Origin: Candidatus Micrarchaeota archaeon
Lineage (GTDB): Archaea > Micrarchaeota > Micrarchaeia > Norongarragalinales > UBA8480
DNA: 10,972 nt
Reading direction: 5' to 3'
NCBI GenBank assembly: GCA_043805855.1
Contig: JAZDHP010000022.1
Span: 1-10,972, forward strand
The position numbers were made by a program, and so were the translations under genes. Below are positions 1,659 through 6,870 of this stretch, in pieces (the stretch's first letter is position 1; every line of letters starts with the position of its first letter). The notes beneath the pieces are model-generated. The model did not search any database. It was not told the DNA's origin and worked only from the letters and a program-made list of their open reading frames with translations.

Positions 1659-2069
1659 ATGGCTAGGGGAAAGGAACGACAAATTATCTGTGCTGGCTGC
1701 AAACGCTACTGCCGTCGCGACAAAGCAGTTTACATTGAAAAAGTAGTATTTTCAAACCCAATTGAAAGAAAAGATACGGTTGACCAAAACGAGTACCGTG
1801 CAGTGTTCAAACGCGAAGTCGCCTACTGCCCCGGCTGTGGCAAACACTTACGCGTTTATGAAAAGAAAAAACAACAAAACGAACGCAACCGCGAGAGAGA
1901 AACCGAACGCGCAATAAGAACGCCAGCATTCAGCGAGAGACACTCAAGAAGCGGCGGTTACAAAGAAGACGAAACACAAACTTCAACACAAAACGACACA
2001 AACCGACCACAACAATACAGGCAAGGCAAACAAACCCAAGACACGCCAAAAGAAACACAAACCCAATAA
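1659..2069 (+). CDS. rps26e: 30S ribosomal protein eS26 (S26e)-like, with a long low-complexity C-terminal tail
   Basis: RG....I.CAGC.R...RDKA followed by YCPGC.KH.RV matches the eS26 pattern RG....v.C.nC.R.vP.DKA ... YCvsCA.H..vv. Confidence 0.75.
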   Translation: MARGKERQIICAGCKRYCRRDKAVYIEKVVFSNPIERKDTVDQNEYRAVFKREVAYCPGCGKHLRVYEKKKQQNERNRERETERAIRTPAFSERHSRSGGYKEDETQTSTQNDTNRPQQYRQGKQTQDTPKETQTQ

Positions 2070-2084
2070 ATTGCCCCAAGCAAA

Positions 2085-2097
2085 TTCTTTTTTTATT
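2085..2097 (+). terminator. Oligo-T terminator after eS26
   Basis: TTCTTTTTTTATT begins about 15 nt after the TAA, in a convergent intergenic region. Confidence 0.55.
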
Positions 2098-2148
2098 CCA
2101 CTTAGATTTAACAATGAGCTCCAGCTAGTTCAAACCAAAAAAATTCGG

Positions 2149-3582
2149 TCAGTGGGAAAAAACTCCTAGTGACTTCTCTTTAAATGGAAGCGGCGACTTT
2201 CCGATTTGTCTTGTCAGACGGTCGGTTTTAAATGCGTTTTGTGGCGCTATTCTGTATTTTCTTTTATTAGGAATTGGAAGCGCTTGTGGTTTGCGTAGCA
2301 TTTCTTTATGTGCACGGACTAAGGCGATTTCAATTGGCCGGTTTATAATTAAATCAAAGTTGGGTATTTTAATCCCGAGCGCGTCTTCGTGTTTTCTCTT
2401 TGTAGCTTCGCCGTGGAACTTTGCCCCACTTAAGTACAAAGCGGCAAATAGTTTTCGCTTAAAGTCGTTTTTATCAGTTTCACGAGGGCAGTTCCTTAAA
2501 ACATAGTTGTCTATTTTTGCCATTTCATGGCCAAGGTATTCACCGCGTATTTCGGCACTAACTGGAATTAGCCCTCCCGAAGGAAGCATACCATGCTGAA
2601 GCGCCTCTCTACCAGGTTTATATGCCGCTAGATCTACATCTGCACCGGCGTCAGTTGTAACAATAACCGGCCGGTTCCCTGCGCGTTTAGCTACTGTTTC
2701 CAGCACGTTTTTTGCCACGTTGCCCTTTCCACTTGCCCTAAGGGCTATAACCTGAGCGGTCTTACTAATGCGAATCCCTTGTATGCTCCTCGTCTCAGAA
2801 ACTTCTATATTATCAAGCAAATCTTCTCTAACAGGAGTGAAAGTTGTTAGTGGCGCCTCATGTCTTTCCTTTTTACTTCTATACAACGCCCTTAGTGACT
2901 TGGATCCCAAAAGTTTTTTACCCCAGCCAGTTAAACGCACGTTTCCATCATAGTGCGCCTGTAAAATCACGCGCTTGTGCGGGTGGTCAAAAGCGTCTAG
3001 CTCGCTTGACTTGAGTTTCAATGCGTTTAACGAGTGGTGAACATCTGCGCCTTGTTCTATTCTATCTCTGCCAAAACATAGCACTACGTTAGGGTATTTT
3101 GCCACTGATAAGTACCACGCGGTTCTAACGGCGTTTTCGTAGTTGCGCTTAGCGTCTGTCCCTTGCTTAGCTAATTCTATTTGTGCGCCTGTGAATACAA
3201 CTGGTTTGTGCAAGTCATGTAAATGATGCGCTAACCTAGTGACTATTTTATGCATGCGGTCAGTGCCACTTATCACCACTACCCCATCTATTGTTTTATC
3301 ATTTGACAACTGTACGAGTTTTTTCCCAAGTTGGTTTAATCGCTTGACATCTATGCGCGAGCTGTCAATGTTGTACAGGAAATGCTGTTGAATTTCCACA
3401 TTGCCGGGACGAAATTCATCTATACACCAAGCGGGTTTGCCCTGTGGCCTAAGTAACGGCAGCTTAATTTCTCCAGGTTCAAGCGTTTCTCCCTTTAAAC
3501 GCATGAACACAGTGCCGCCTATTATGACAACCGCGATGCGTTTACGCGGCAATTCCCCAATCGCTTCATTTCTAATTAACAT
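2149..3582 (-). CDS. Divergent L-asparaginase/glutaminase-family protein with a basic C-terminal extension
   Basis: Motifs IGGTV (TGGTI), IDSS, SGTDRM (HGTDTM), KPVVFTGAQ, TDA..N, K....LDAF and SGKGN (G.GN). There is no GatD N-terminal domain. Confidence 0.8.
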   Translation of the reverse strand: MLIRNEAIGELPRKRIAVVIIGGTVFMRLKGETLEPGEIKLPLLRPQGKPAWCIDEFRPGNVEIQQHFLYNIDSSRIDVKRLNQLGKKLVQLSNDKTIDGVVVISGTDRMHKIVTRLAHHLHDLHKPVVFTGAQIELAKQGTDAKRNYENAVRTAWYLSVAKYPNVVLCFGRDRIEQGADVHHSLNALKLKSSELDAFDHPHKRVILQAHYDGNVRLTGWGKKLLGSKSLRALYRSKKERHEAPLTTFTPVREDLLDNIEVSETRSIQGIRISKTAQVIALRASGKGNVAKNVLETVAKRAGNRPVIVTTDAGADVDLAAYKPGREALQHGMLPSGGLIPVSAEIRGEYLGHEMAKIDNYVLRNCPRETDKNDFKRKLFAALYLSGAKFHGEATKRKHEDALGIKIPNFDLIINRPIEIALVRAHKEMLRKPQALPIPNKRKYRIAPQNAFKTDRLTRQIGKSPLPFKEKSLGVFSH

Positions 3583-3693
3583 TGTCTATTACTTAGACGC
3601 CAGCGTCCTTTTTCAAGATATCGACTGTTCGCGAGTAAGACACCGAACTATTTTTTAAGCTAAACCAGCAAATAACAAGAAACTCTAAAACAA

Positions 3694-4368
3694 CTAGCTC
3701 CGCCTTTGTAGCCCTTTACTAGCTAGCTCAGCAAGAATCTCTTCAAACTTACCCGCATGCTTTTCAGAAAAAGCTTTAATTGCAGCTCGGTTAACCTGCC
3801 CAATTTTATCTATATAATCTGGATGAAGCTGCCCTCTTGGCCAACCTAACTCAAGATTATTACCAACTTGCGTGTTGGGCTCTTCCATACCCCGGCCATA
3901 TTTACCAACAGCAGTTTCTTTTCGCCTATATTTCAAGGGGTCTAAAAAGTAAAGTTCGACAGCGACTGCGTTTCCATACCTTTCAAATTGCAATAGCGAA
4001 GGACGCGACAAATCATAATTATCAACCGGAGTTCCGTGAAAGTGAACAACCGGCGCCGTGAAACCCTTTGACTTTAGAAAATCAGTAACTTGTGAATCAT
4101 CCGGAACATTAGCATGCAACCGCTTGACAACTTCTTTACTTAACTTCCTCTTTTCTGCAGTTTTCCATAACCAGTGTGGCGTCCACCTAGCAGGAATTCT
4201 AACAACAACCGCGCCGTGCTTTTCCCATTTTTCATGATGATGCAACGCGATGTTAATCGTTCCCTCGTTCGGATGGCGGCCGACAAAAACAATTACCTTG
4301 CGCTTTGCTTCCGGAACCTGACGCAACAACTCTTCCATGTGTTTCAAATTCCTAGGCCGAAGAATCAT
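3694..4368 (-). CDS. Hypothetical protein with an M14/AstE-AspA-like zinc-binding signature, 224 aa
   Basis: Start moved to ATG 4368, because the longer ORF runs into the tRNA and TTATAA lies 23-28 nt upstream. Motifs IVFVGRHPNEG (HxxE), VVHFHG and AVAVEL. Confidence 0.6.
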   Translation of the reverse strand: MILRPRNLKHMEELLRQVPEAKRKVIVFVGRHPNEGTINIALHHHEKWEKHGAVVVRIPARWTPHWLWKTAEKRKLSKEVVKRLHANVPDDSQVTDFLKSKGFTAPVVHFHGTPVDNYDLSRPSLLQFERYGNAVAVELYFLDPLKYRRKETAVGKYGRGMEEPNTQVGNNLELGWPRGQLHPDYIDKIGQVNRAAIKAFSEKHAGKFEEILAELASKGLQRRS

Positions 4369-4435
4369 GAATAAACTAATAGCAAATAGCTTATAATCAA
4401 TTACGCACCAAACTAAATACAGAAAAAATAAATGT

Positions 4436-4626
4436 GGGCCCGTAGTCGAGAAAAGGCCCTCAAGGCCGGGCCTTTTAAACCTCGGCCAAGAGGAACTTTC
4501 GACAATGGCCAAGACGTTCGCCTTACACGCGAAAGATCCGGAGTTCGATAAGCCATGCCTTTCTTTTAGAAAAAGAAAGGCCAGGCGTGGCGAAAGAAAA
4601 CCACAACGAAAATCTCCGCGGGCCCA
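4436..4626 (+). tRNA. tRNA-Val(TAC) with two non-canonical introns (15/16: 4451-4505; 59/60: 4550-4612)
   Basis: Exons 4436-4450, 4506-4549 and 4613-4626 join into a 73-nt cloverleaf: GGGCCCG TA GTCG AGTGGCCA AGAC G TTCGC CT TAC AC GCGAA AGATC CGGAG TTCGATT CTCCG CGGGCCC A. Acceptor, anticodon and T stems pair perfectly. G15-C48, G18G19 and discriminator A73 are present. CCA is not encoded. Confidence 0.93.
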
Positions 4627-4672
4627 TATTTTTAAAATTAACTAATTTTATTTAGCCCTGCCTTTTTAGAAG

Positions 4673-5695
4673 TTACGCTGCTTCTTTTTGTTTGTTTTTT
4701 CTTTTTTGTCGTTCGGATTGGAAGAGGTCTTTGTGTCTTCTGCGTAGGCGATAGTAGTTTTCTTGCGTTGTTGCATCTTTTGGCGGGATACCGAATACCG
4801 CGCTGGTGCCAAAGGCTAAAACGTGCTTTACGCGGCTTCTACTTCGATCCAGTTGTTCAGCAATTTCACTTCTATTTTTACCTGCGATGAGTAATTGCAT
4901 TGCTTTTCCAGCTGTTTCTCCACGAAGTGCAAGCGCGTTGACAATATGTTTACGCGTCGCAAGAGAAGCGGGGTGAACGTTGTTAACTAAATCAGGCTGT
5001 AACGCGGTACCCATAACTAAATCTGGGTGCCGCCGCCATAAACTGCCGCCGGTTCGAAAGCTATTGCCACGGAGGCCAGATCTATTACTATCAAGTAAAT
5101 TTTGTGCAGCTTTATCACCACGGTTAGCTGCGATTTGAATCTTACCACGCATCGCCTCAATGAATTCAACGTCTCTTGGTCGCGTTTTAAGCGCGTCAAC
5201 TACGTCAATTGGAAATTCTTTTTCTCGTCTTTTAACCGCACGGCGCAAAAGGTAAATTGAATGTGCGCCCGTTGGCAAAACGCCGGATAATCCCAGTGCA
5301 ATTGCACGGCGAGCGCTTACCACTGCAGCACCAATATACATTGGAAACATCCTGCGAGCGAGTTTTTTAGCTAAACGCCAACTTTCCACAGTTGGGTTAC
5401 GCTCTTTTGGAAGGTTACCGGTTTCGTTATAGAAACGCACGTGGGCGTCAAGCGCCTTGACCATAGCGCTAACTATAGACTCGCTTAACTTAGCTTTCCG
5501 CGCAATTTGCCTAACGTTTTTATCCTGAAGCGCCAAACTTACAACTTCTTCATGCTGCCCACCTAAATGTCGAGCAACTTTAAGCGCATTTTCGCCGTGT
5601 TCTTTAATCCAACTTGCTCCAAAACGTCTAGGCGCCGTTGAGATAAGCATAACCTTTTTCACACTAGCTACTCGACGCGTTCGTATAGTTTTCAT
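4673..5695 (-). CDS. Basic hypothetical protein with two LuxR/sigma70-region-4-like HTH motifs (paralog 1)
   Basis: HTH-like segments LALQDKNVRQIARKAKLSESIVSAMV and LLIAGKNRSEIAEQLDRSRSRVKHVL. Colinear similarity to 5767..6870. Confidence 0.8.
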   Translation of the reverse strand: MKTIRTRRVASVKKVMLISTAPRRFGASWIKEHGENALKVARHLGGQHEEVVSLALQDKNVRQIARKAKLSESIVSAMVKALDAHVRFYNETGNLPKERNPTVESWRLAKKLARRMFPMYIGAAVVSARRAIALGLSGVLPTGAHSIYLLRRAVKRREKEFPIDVVDALKTRPRDVEFIEAMRGKIQIAANRGDKAAQNLLDSNRSGLRGNSFRTGGSLWRRHPDLVMGTALQPDLVNNVHPASLATRKHIVNALALRGETAGKAMQLLIAGKNRSEIAEQLDRSRSRVKHVLAFGTSAVFGIPPKDATTQENYYRLRRRHKDLFQSERQKRKNKQKEAA

Positions 5696-5766: not shown

Positions 5767-6870
5767 TTACGCTGCTTCTTTTAATTGTTGTTTGTCTTTG
5801 GTTTTTGTTTTCTTTGGTTGGAAGACGTCTGCATGTCTTCTCATTAGCTTGAAGTAGTGAACTGTTGCATTGTTTCCTGCTGGTGGGATTCCGAACACTG
5901 CACTTGGACCCGCGGTTAAAAGCGTCGTAACTTTACTAGGCGTTAGCTTCATGTTCCGCGCAATTTCAGCTCTAGATTTACCTGCAATTAGTAACTTCAT
6001 TGCAATACCAGCAGGTTCACTTCGCGCGGCAAGTGCATTCACTATACTTTTTCTCGTTGCAAGTGACTGCGGGTGAATTCCCTTAATGAAAGAAGGCTGC
6101 AATGCAGTTCCCATAACCAAGTCAGGGTGCCGCCGCCATAACCCGCAACCGGAGACATACCGTTCGTTTTTTCTAGTATCGTAGTAACTAGCCAAAAACT
6201 TCTTTGCAGCTTCATCTCCCCGTTCAGCAGCTTGTTCAACTTTATGCCTGATGCCGCGCAATCTCTCGTTATTGCCTAAGTGTACTTTAACAGACTGAAC
6301 TATTTCTTCAGGAAACAAACGGCTATTAGCATTAACCACACGTCGTAAGCAGTAAATTGTATTAGGATGAACAGGCATAACGCCAGATAGCCCAAGTGCA
6401 ATTGCACGCGTAGCGTTGTTTCTCCTAGTTCTATCGCAAAGGTAAGCGGGCGAAGCTAGTTTATGCACTAGCGACTTTGCTGAATGCCAGTCCTCGGCAG
6501 TTGGTTCGCGCTCGCCGGGCATTCTGCCAGTTTTTTTATAGAAACGCACTTGTGCATCAAGTGCTTTAACCATAGCGCTAACGTACTGTGGCGTCAACCT
6601 AAGTTTATGCGCAATTTGTTTAATTCGCTTACCTTTAACCGCCAATTCAACGAGATACTTGTGCGTTTCGCCTAAATTTTCTGCAACTTTAAAGCAAGCT
6701 TCTCTCTCGCTTTTAATCCAACTTGCGCCGTGTCGCTTCGGTGCCTTTGCAGCTAGTGTAAACTCTTCCACTCTAACCACATCTGGAGTTCGATTCGAAT
6801 GCCTAGGCGCTTTTACAGCTAGCGTAAACTTTTCAGTTCTAACAATTCTCCTAGTTCGATTACTTGGCAT
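5767..6870 (-). CDS. Basic hypothetical protein with two HTH motifs (paralog 2)
   Basis: HTH-like segments LAVKGKRIKQIAHKLRLTPQYVSAMV and LLIAGKSRAEIARNMKLTPSKVTTLL. Shares LWRRHPDLVMGTALQP and other blocks with paralog 1. Confidence 0.8.
   Translation of the reverse strand: MPSNRTRRIVRTEKFTLAVKAPRHSNRTPDVVRVEEFTLAAKAPKRHGASWIKSEREACFKVAENLGETHKYLVELAVKGKRIKQIAHKLRLTPQYVSAMVKALDAQVRFYKKTGRMPGEREPTAEDWHSAKSLVHKLASPAYLCDRTRRNNATRAIALGLSGVMPVHPNTIYCLRRVVNANSRLFPEEIVQSVKVHLGNNERLRGIRHKVEQAAERGDEAAKKFLASYYDTRKNERYVSGCGLWRRHPDLVMGTALQPSFIKGIHPQSLATRKSIVNALAARSEPAGIAMKLLIAGKSRAEIARNMKLTPSKVTTLLTAGPSAVFGIPPAGNNATVHYFKLMRRHADVFQPKKTKTKDKQQLKEAA
6733..6864 (-). repeat. Degenerate 66-bp (22-aa) tandem duplication at the N-terminus of paralog 2
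   Basis: SNRTRRIVRTEKFTLAVKAPRH versus SNRTPDVVRVEEFTLAAKAPKR. AGTTCGATT occurs at 6787 and 6853, 66 nt apart. Confidence 0.85.

Follow-up and report, generated by a model that had tools for sequence, protein, structure and literature searches.

Introduction

Disrupted tRNA genes have been described in some detail for ARMAN-2 (Candidatus Micrarchaeum acidiphilum), in which 56% of the tRNA genes are interrupted (PMC3239211). Pre-tRNA-Cys(GCA) of this archaeon carries an intron at position 59/60 in an hBH motif, and pre-tRNA-Pro(GGG) has two T-loop introns, at 53/54 and 59/60, both in strict hBHBh' motifs; the introns of both tRNAs have been linked to an epsilon2-type EndA (PMC3239211). The ARMAN-2 T-loop intron is cleaved in vitro by epsilon2 EndA, the enzyme of PDB entry 4fz2, which has a catalytic triad of Y236, H251 and K282 and recognition residues R275 and W384, and in which K161, within the loop GTYKVSEH, confers cutting of relaxed motifs, the T-loop intron included (PMC3488258). 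That 59/60 hBH introns of ARMAN-2 are cut in vitro by its epsilon2 EndA is already known. Multi-intron tRNA genes also occur in the Thermoproteales, with 'large-scale tRNA intron transposition', according to work cited within PMC3239211. The route by which tRNA introns arrive in archaea is described as still open in a 2026 preprint on Asgard archaea.

Here a tRNA-Val(UAC) locus from a groundwater archaeon of the Micrarchaeota (DPANN) is compared with these systems. Positions 4436-4626 of the analysed DNA are read, with a probability of about 0.9, as a working, spliced tRNA-Val(UAC) gene, the only one that the assembly shows.

Results

A tRNA-Val(UAC) gene of three exons and two introns

The window, which is the whole stretch of DNA analysed (10,972 nucleotides), is an entire contig of a 67-contig, 1.03-Mb assembly with a G+C content of 41% and a completeness of 92%. 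The tRNA-Val(UAC) gene lies on its forward strand and is composed of three exons separated by two introns (Table 1). An earlier reading of the sequence alone had proposed a tRNA-Val(TAC) with introns at positions 15/16 and 59/60, and every helix, bulge and length named in it was found in place. Splicing in silico gave a product of 73 nt, called as tRNA-Val(tac) over [1,73] by ARAGORN, with G15, C48 and A73 present, in agreement with the further claim that cutting after the second bulge nucleotide yields a canonical 73-nt tRNA with G15 and C48. That standard scanners would overlook the gene was also confirmed, as neither ARAGORN nor Rfam produced a tRNA match on the unspliced window, and the locus was absent among the 11 genes obtained with the intron mode of ARAGORN on the whole genome. 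A run of five T residues is located 3' of exon 3, at 4629-4633. A spurious upstream TTG start stretches an ORF (3694-4512) across the tRNA, and owing to this overlap a crude coding mask drops true tRNA genes, tRNA-Val(UAC) included.

Table 1. Positions in the window of the parts of the tRNA-Val(UAC) gene and of the repeat units within its introns
Feature	Position	Strand	Description
Exon 1	4436-4450	+	Acceptor 5' strand, nt 8-9, D-stem 5' strand GTCG, A14, G15
Intron 1	4451-4505	+	55 nt, position 15/16, relaxed BHB, HBh' type
Unit A (intron 1 body)	4452-4491	+	Palindromic repeat, imperfect rod-like hairpin
Exon 2	4506-4549	+	Rest of D arm, anticodon arm, variable loop, T-stem 5' strand, T-loop nt 54-59
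Anticodon TAC	4524-4526	+	Inside exon 2
Intron 2	4550-4612	+	63 nt, position 59/60, relaxed BHB, hBH type, closed by T stem
Unit B (intron 2 body)	4551-4604	+	Double-hairpin repeat
Exon 3	4613-4626	+	nt 60, T-stem 3' strand, acceptor 3' strand, discriminator A73

BHB motifs were sought with a custom scanner that required a 4-bp central helix containing no more than one G-U pair, a pair of 3-nt bulges, a flanking helix of 4 bp or longer and an intron of 11-300 nt. In intron 1 the central helix is formed by GTCG (4445-4448) and CGAC (4500-4503), the bulges are AG/A and AA/T (the slash marking the cut), and a 4-bp inner helix pairs AAAG (4452-4455) with CTTT (4496-4499), whilst the outer helix amounts to 0 bp. 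In intron 2 TTCG (4544-4547) pairs with CGAA (4607-4610), the bulges are AT/A and AA/T, and the T stem itself, CGGAG (4539-4543) with CTCCG (4614-4618), serves as an outer helix of 5 bp, with 0 bp in the adjacent inner helix. Both motifs are thus relaxed, each with one flanking helix missing as had been read from the letters, and correspond to the HBh' type (intron 1) and the hBH type (intron 2).

BHB-like motifs are common by chance, and for this reason the weight of the identification rests on the tRNA product and the orthologues rather than on the motifs. The scanner returned 99 candidates in the segment 4301-4760 and 355,241 genome-wide on both strands. Splice paths, comprising all intron combinations whose removal leaves 70-95 nt able to form a T stem and an acceptor stem of 7 bp, numbered 77 in the same segment; a single one yields a tRNA, and its junctions are 4450/4506 and 4549/4613. 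When the letters of the introns were shuffled with the junctions held fixed, a BHB was kept in 34 of 200,000 shuffles for intron 1 and in 4,775 of 200,000 for intron 2, corresponding to a joint chance of about 4e-6.

The minimum-energy fold of the full-length precursor (-81.8 kcal/mol, z = -6.4 against shuffles) includes the central helix of intron 2 along with the acceptor and T stems. However, it pairs GUCGAG with an internal CUCGGC in place of the BHB partner in intron 1, which counts against formation of that motif. A fold constrained to the cloverleaf and both BHBs had an energy of -77.0 kcal/mol, 4.8 kcal/mol worse than the minimum-energy fold. When nt 8-76 are folded locally, intron 1 does adopt its helix-bulge-helix, atop the rod-like intron hairpin.

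Splicing enzymes and valine codon usage

A single match to the EndA catalytic domain was present in the genome, in a protein of 388 aa that carries both the Pfam N-terminal and catalytic domains and has as its closest relatives records titled Candidatus Micrarchaeota archaeon. Residues 9-388 of this protein align with residues 10-387 of 4fz2_A (E 9.1e-131), and the six residues Y236, H251, K282, R275, W384 and K161 (GTYK) are identical in the alignment (6/6). The protein is a full-length homologue of the ARMAN-2 enzyme and is predicted to be of the epsilon2 type. The expectation of the sequence-only reading that a broad-specificity EndA would be encoded was therefore borne out by the sole EndA of the genome. 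An RtcB ligase is also encoded, and a weak full-length match to archaeal RNase P RNA was obtained (50 bits against a gathering score of 84).

Of the 18,265 valine codons in ORFs that are 200 codons or longer, 4,797 are GTA. The sequence-only reading had left room for an uninterrupted tRNA-Val(TAC) elsewhere in the genome; in the 92%-complete assembly no other tRNA-Val(UAC), uninterrupted or otherwise, was found by ARAGORN, and BLAST of the spliced sequence matched only exon 2 of the locus described here.

Orthologues in related genomes

The region was compared by BLAST with 60 relatives, and matched loci were passed through the same BHB scanner. A tRNA-Val(UAC) gene was found in nine relatives and is intron-free in eight of them, namely three genomes of the same genus (G001, G002 and G003) together with G007, G008, G037, G038 and G053; the ninth, G021, has a single 194-nt intron at 59/60. 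Intron 1 is missing in 9/9 orthologues and intron 2 in 8/9. Exon 1 matches the 5' end of the intron-free orthologues, and the BLAST matches of exon 2 in relatives begin at 4506 and stop at 4549. The spliced product aligns without gaps to seven of the eight intron-free orthologues and to the spliced G021 gene, the G001 gene being 1 nt shorter. Its junction sequences are identical to those of G002 and G003, from which it differs at 7 of 73 positions, with stem changes that keep pairing at 6-67 (TA to CG) and 49-65 (AT to CG). The genes of G001, G002 and G003 score 69.6-73.2 bits against the Rfam tRNA model. With a one-base shift at either junction, the product would no longer resemble the orthologues. 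The exact junctions read from the sequence are thus matched by the intron-free orthologues, as well as by metagenome contigs that lack introns at the same borders.

A similar pattern was seen for other tRNA genes. tRNA-Val(GAC) is intron-free in G001, G002 and G003, and tRNA-Ala(GGC) is intron-free in G001 and G003, the two same-genus genomes in which it was found. In the genome studied here Val(UAC), Val(GAC) and Ala(GGC) carry two, three and one introns respectively, a total of six, against none in the same-genus genomes in which these genes were found. After splicing, Val(GAC) and its G001 counterpart disagree at 1 of 72 positions.

Metagenome alleles with and without the introns

Contigs from four groundwater metagenome runs (X1-X4, presumed to be DNA) were compared with positions 4200-4800, and the segment 4300-4760 was recorded in seven runs, in small shares and again presumed to be DNA, none of them being registered as RNA. 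The contigs come from relatives and several are short; they report the presence or absence of introns in DNA at the predicted borders rather than splicing, and what is present or absent is in each case the whole intron, repeat unit and tail, rather than the unit alone. Record 1 of X1 (825 nt) resembles 4202-4450 at approximately 88% and passes from 4450 straight into 4506, so that precisely the 55 nt of intron 1 are missing, with only 20 letters on the shorter side of the joint. Record 15 of X3 (151 nt) corresponds to 4506-4638 with two other letters and with intron 2 present, whilst 15 nt of exon 1 stand directly before 4506 and intron 1 is absent. The three letters preceding the tRNA in this record differ from the window, indicating DNA of another strain rather than a transcript. 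In record 11 of X2 an exon 3 of the G002 type follows directly after 4549, with intron 2 absent, and record 4 of X1 is without intron 1 and after 4550 runs into a T-loop intron with a different body. Finally, record 9 of X2 matches 4435-4490 with zero other letters, indicating that an allele bearing intron 1 exists outside the assembly. The allele states observed thus number four, with both introns, with intron 2 alone, with neither, and with a T-loop intron of another body.

Dispersed repeats as intron bodies

Each intron consists of a repeat unit followed by a short tail complementary to the exon. Positions 2-40 of intron 1 are identical at 37/39 positions to sequences elsewhere in the genome (C47:15926-15964 and C9:30541-30579), and an nhmmer profile of unit A gave 15 matches at E<=1, of which 13 had E<0.01, four being the seed sequences. 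Copies of unit A occur in either orientation, some within other tRNA introns, some following coding genes and some adjoining the first base of tRNA genes. A TATA-like centre of this unit was considered as a promoter for the adjoining tRNAs and was rejected, as it is TATA-like in only some copies. In unit B a first hairpin at 4558-4580 is followed by a second formed by GTGG (4587-4590) and CCAC (4601-4604) around an A-rich loop. Positions 2-51 of intron 2 are 92-95% identical to three copies in the genome (C34:1050-1099, C9:30804-30851 and C8:567-609), two of which lie outside introns and one of which is antisense within an anticodon-loop intron. The first hairpin of unit B is one of 76 perfect hairpins of its kind in the genome, 28 of which are inside 28 T-loop introns and 14 more close by; in the per-strand list of 152, where each is counted twice, six fall within the coding mask.

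In metagenomes both units occur with many unrelated flanks, the summed contig depth reaching up to 266 as against 2-5 beside the unit (the intron 2 unit in run X4). Many copies, unrelated flanks and both orientations, as expected of mobile palindromes, were thus found for units A and B. No direct repeat or target-site duplication was seen at the intron borders, neither a Y1 transposase nor a reverse transcriptase was found in the genome, and the TnpB zinc-ribbon family gave one sub-threshold match of 18.6 bits.

The tail of intron 1 (4492-4505) supplies CTTT of the inner helix, CGAC of the central helix and the AA of the 3' bulge, and the tail of intron 2 (approximately 4605-4612) supplies the strand complementary to the exon. 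In the homologous D-loop intron of the C21 tRNA, GCAG in the exon and CTGC in the tail stand in place of the GTCG and CGAC of the valine genes, and the inner helix is AAGG/CCTT as against AAAG/CTTT. These changes on both sides of the helices indicate covariation in both helices of the intron 1 motif.

Other interrupted tRNA genes and a family of T-loop introns

With introns disallowed, ARAGORN called three tRNA genes in the genome, two of which are 92-nt mis-modellings of genes that the BHB scanner resolves as interrupted, and Rfam gave five tRNA matches above threshold. The scanner resolved 17 tRNA loci at strict settings and a census around the hairpins found 15, counts that are lower bounds given that the tRNA census is incomplete. 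tRNA-Val(GAC) is split by introns at 15/16, 59/60 and a third site in the D loop, tRNA-Val(CAC) carries one at 53/54, and the C21 tRNA has introns at 15/16 and 59/60 that are homologous to those of the valine genes. Further essential tRNAs of the organism carry introns of the Val(UAC) types.

A permissive list of T-loop candidates (514 rows, mostly noise) was filtered to 16, and a second search, which made no demand of a central helix, looked for a T stem closed across an insert holding the hairpin motif. The resulting alignment (A1) contains 21 T-loop introns that align well; common to them are a perfect pyrimidine/purine hairpin, another hairpin whose loop is A-rich, and YGAA plus two bases at the 3' end. 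When A1 was compared with the hBH structure 97.0% of cells were paired; the value was 83.9% in shuffles, and sliding the 3' partner by 1-3 columns gave 50.6-72.3%. At T-loop nt 57 the pair formed with the intron is AU in nine members, GC in nine and GU in two, with one other, although this covariation count is partly circular because a central helix had been a condition for selecting 16 of the 21 rows. Of the five rows chosen without a pairing criterion, four pair at this position. RNAalifold on A1 favoured an internal GGA over the 3' YGAA as the partner of the T-loop TTC.

A covariance model of the family (R1) gave 39 matches in the genome at E <=0.001, at least 28 of them full-length, together with 25 in G002, 18 in G003 and 9 in G001. 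Matches were present in 43 of 61 genomes of the order, the present one included. R1 was built from sequences of the present genome and hence favours it; the best matches in G001 and G002 score as high as its own. Intron 2 belongs to this family, being part of A1 and scoring 64 bits against R1.

Discussion

A working gene of this structure would be transcribed into a 191-nt precursor, in which each intron would pair through its 3' end with exon sequence, intron 1 with the 5' strand of the D stem and intron 2 with T-loop nt 54-57. These pairings would form two relaxed BHBs, HBh' at 15/16 and hBH at 59/60, each of which the epsilon2-type EndA would cut after the second nucleotide of its 3-nt bulge, leaving RtcB to join the three exons into the 73-nt tRNA. 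From the gene, its junctions and the enzymes encoded in the genome we infer that this cleavage and ligation take place in the cell. To standard tools the genome looks almost tRNA-free, and genes such as tRNA-Val(UAC) restore its decoding set.

The interpretation of both introns as recent, repeat-derived gains is moderately supported. Eight of the nine Val(UAC) orthologues across the order are without introns, so that gain in the present lineage is the simpler reading, and to judge from the X3 allele the arrival, or the loss, of intron 1 may be very recent. The introns could instead be old and spliced, with relatives having lost them, for example by recombination with spliced tRNA copies. If introns were lost by way of a spliced copy, they should be missing precisely between the splice junctions, as is observed, and an old origin is also consistent with the homologous 15/16 and 59/60 introns of the paralogue tRNA-Val(GAC) and of the C21 tRNA and with the distribution of the T-loop family through 43 of 61 genomes of the order, this genome counted. 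It is nevertheless considered unlikely, as orthologues lacking both introns (8/9) are spread over genus, family and order and many independent losses would be needed. In addition, other repeat copies within the genome differ from the intron bodies by just 2-3 mismatches, a search of the genome for a reverse transcriptase was negative, and Val(GAC) is intron-free in three same-genus genomes, as is Ala(GGC) in the two where it was found.

Both introns may be newly arrived selfish elements that make EndA-cuttable sites wherever they land, a tentative proposal to which slightly less than an even chance is given. Such an element would comprise a palindromic unit of 40-55 nt and an 8-14-nt tail able to base-pair with a conserved part of the tRNA, the partner being TTCR of the T loop in the 59/60 family and the 5' strand of the D stem in the 15/16 family, and the element would be tolerated because of the broad specificity of the epsilon2 enzyme. 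This would explain the presence of at least 28 filled T loops, the same-genus difference of six introns across three tRNA genes, and the existence of an allele approximately 98.5% identical over 133 nt that is without intron 1. It is plausible that the 59/60 family owes its success to a tail able to pair with the TTCR of every tRNA and to the T stem, which provides a free outer helix, and the 15/16 type is presumably rare since it needs a matching D stem. If true, selfish units of this kind would show concretely how tRNA introns can originate and spread in archaea.

The same repeat-like bodies raise the question of whether two repeats simply landed in tRNA-Val(UAC) and killed it, with a working copy located in the unassembled 8%. 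Near identity of the intron bodies (approximately 95%) to dispersed repeats would be expected of an inactivating insertion too, as would relatives and metagenome alleles without the insertions, and the assembly is 92% complete. Such a pseudogene is nonetheless very improbable, since both tails form a BHB exactly at the junctions that restore the tRNA, a coincidence seen jointly in only about four per million by the shuffling control. Moreover, the same intron family occupies at least 28 T arms, so that nearly all tRNA genes would be dead, the substitutions relative to G002 and G003 keep stem pairing, and a fitting endonuclease is encoded. Least probable of all, and hardly to be entertained, is an assembly artefact in which tRNA fragments were joined across repeated hairpins, since, although the contig is from a metagenome-assembled genome and the introns hold multi-copy repeats matching many contigs, the junctions are reproduced by contigs of other runs (X2 record 9 for 4435-4490 and X3 record 15 for 4506-4638), the exons are in the right order and orientation, and the unique intron tails are complementary to the adjoining exons.

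The locus offers an unusually clean case for intron arrival, with an exact empty site provided by same-genus genomes, a near-identical allele lacking one intron, and near-identical copies of the intron bodies in the same genome. Together these make gain versus loss, and the route of arrival, testable with population data and simple enzymology. In the literature consulted, which consisted mostly of abstracts, no link of Micrarchaeota tRNA introns to dispersed palindromic repeats and no report of intron content differing among genomes of one genus was found.

The closest described counterpart, ARMAN-2 tRNA-Cys, is from the same phylum and shares the 59/60 position, the hBH class closed by the T stem, the enzyme type and the lysine of the specific loop, whereas the gene described here is a different tRNA with a second intron, the 15/16 HBh'. 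ARMAN-2 tRNA-Pro is likewise a multi-intron Micrarchaeota tRNA with a 59/60 intron, and its 53/54 position recurs in tRNA-Val(CAC) of the present genome; unlike in tRNA-Pro, both motifs of Val(UAC) are relaxed and one is in the D loop. The Thermoproteales resemble this system in having many tRNA genes cut at non-canonical sites, related introns across different tRNAs and a broad-specificity EndA, but they belong to another phylum and have an (alpha-beta)2 enzyme. To our knowledge, introns made of palindromic units that are also found between genes have not been described in them.

Bacterial REP/BIME and Rickettsia palindromic elements are short multi-copy hairpin units that occur in both orientations and mostly outside coding sequence. 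The present units are like them in these respects, being short, multi-copy, hairpin-forming, found in both orientations and mostly non-coding. In contrast to REP/BIME, no Y1 transposase was found in the genome and the units sit inside spliced RNA introns.

In the system described here dispersed repeats correspond to the intron bodies, and intron-bearing alleles coexist with alleles that lack the introns. Compared with ARMAN-2 as published, intron 2 differs in being one of at least 28 homologous T-loop introns and in having a dispersed repeat as its body. What is added here to the known systems is a 59/60 intron family of at least 28 copies, dispersed repeats of approximately 95% identity serving as intron bodies, and a difference of six introns in three tRNA genes within a single genus.

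Dispersed copies of the intron repeat units

In the genome holding the window (G000), copies of both intron bodies of tRNA-Val(UAC), repeat unit A (the palindromic body of intron 1) and repeat unit B (the double-hairpin body of intron 2), were observed beside other tRNA genes. At two tRNA genes, the downstream sequence repeats the final 13–14 nt of the tRNA and part of its trailer, so that this segment is present twice, and an antisense unit B copy sits between the two copies in each case. At four different tRNA genes the first base is met exactly, or within 2 nt, by the end of an antisense unit A copy. Unit A at the start of a tRNA gene would be a structured 5' leader; one of these placements is kept in a same-genus genome (locus L003, G001:C36, about 1165–1204). 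Two further unit A copies, at C28:13082–13125 and C29:47721–47770, lie in paralogous non-coding loci with near-identical flanks, each with a TATA-like box upstream, and these loci may represent an interrupted small RNA gene.

Features in G000 and in the window
Feature	Sequence	Position	Strand
Duplicated tRNA 3' end with antisense unit B between	C9	about 30763–30870	+
Duplicated tRNA 3' end with antisense unit B between	C32	about 6100–6230	
Antisense unit A copy abutting tRNA gene start	C9	30538–30579	
Antisense unit A copy abutting tRNA gene start	C47	15923–15964	
Antisense unit A copy abutting tRNA gene start	C10	13991–14054	
Antisense unit A copy abutting tRNA gene start	C17	8627–8667	
Asparaginase-domain gene, GatD-like	window	2152–3582	
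Uncharacterised gene	window	3697 to about 4369	

Intron 1 of tRNA-Val(GAC) (C19:13331–13586, minus strand; locus L042) is of the Val(UAC) type and additionally contains, nested within it, a perfect palindrome about 30 nt long, as would be expected had the intron received another hairpin by insertion. A T-loop intron is present in both of the orthologous tRNA genes at L004 (G003:C99) and G000 C58:2478–2559, its body being unit B in the same-genus genomes G003 and G002 and of the plain family type in G000; these differing bodies therefore indicate body replacement among close relatives.

Genomic context and RNA-processing genes

In the three same-genus genomes (loci L022–L024) tRNA-Val(UAC) lies about 110–310 nt from the homologue of window 1659–2069; comparison with window 1659–4435 showed that in the window two genes intervene, the GatD-like asparaginase-domain gene and the uncharacterised gene of the table, an arrangement also found in a relative (groundwater metagenome contig X1 record 1). 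A listed 272-aa ORF (window 3694–4512, minus strand) runs over the first 77 nt of tRNA-Val(UAC) only because of an upstream TTG, and starts at ATG 4369 or 4338 would leave the tRNA free of it.

RtcB, the RNA ligase proposed to join the exons, is encoded in G000 within a single 960-aa open frame (C59:12806–15532, minus strand), where Pfam positions 1–50 and 45–426 are separated by about 1.4 kb; this gap resembles an insertion that keeps the reading frame, for example an intein. A full-length match to archaeal RNase P RNA (C20:5180–5525, plus strand) scores 50 bits, below the gathering threshold of 84, and is probably a divergent RNase P RNA.
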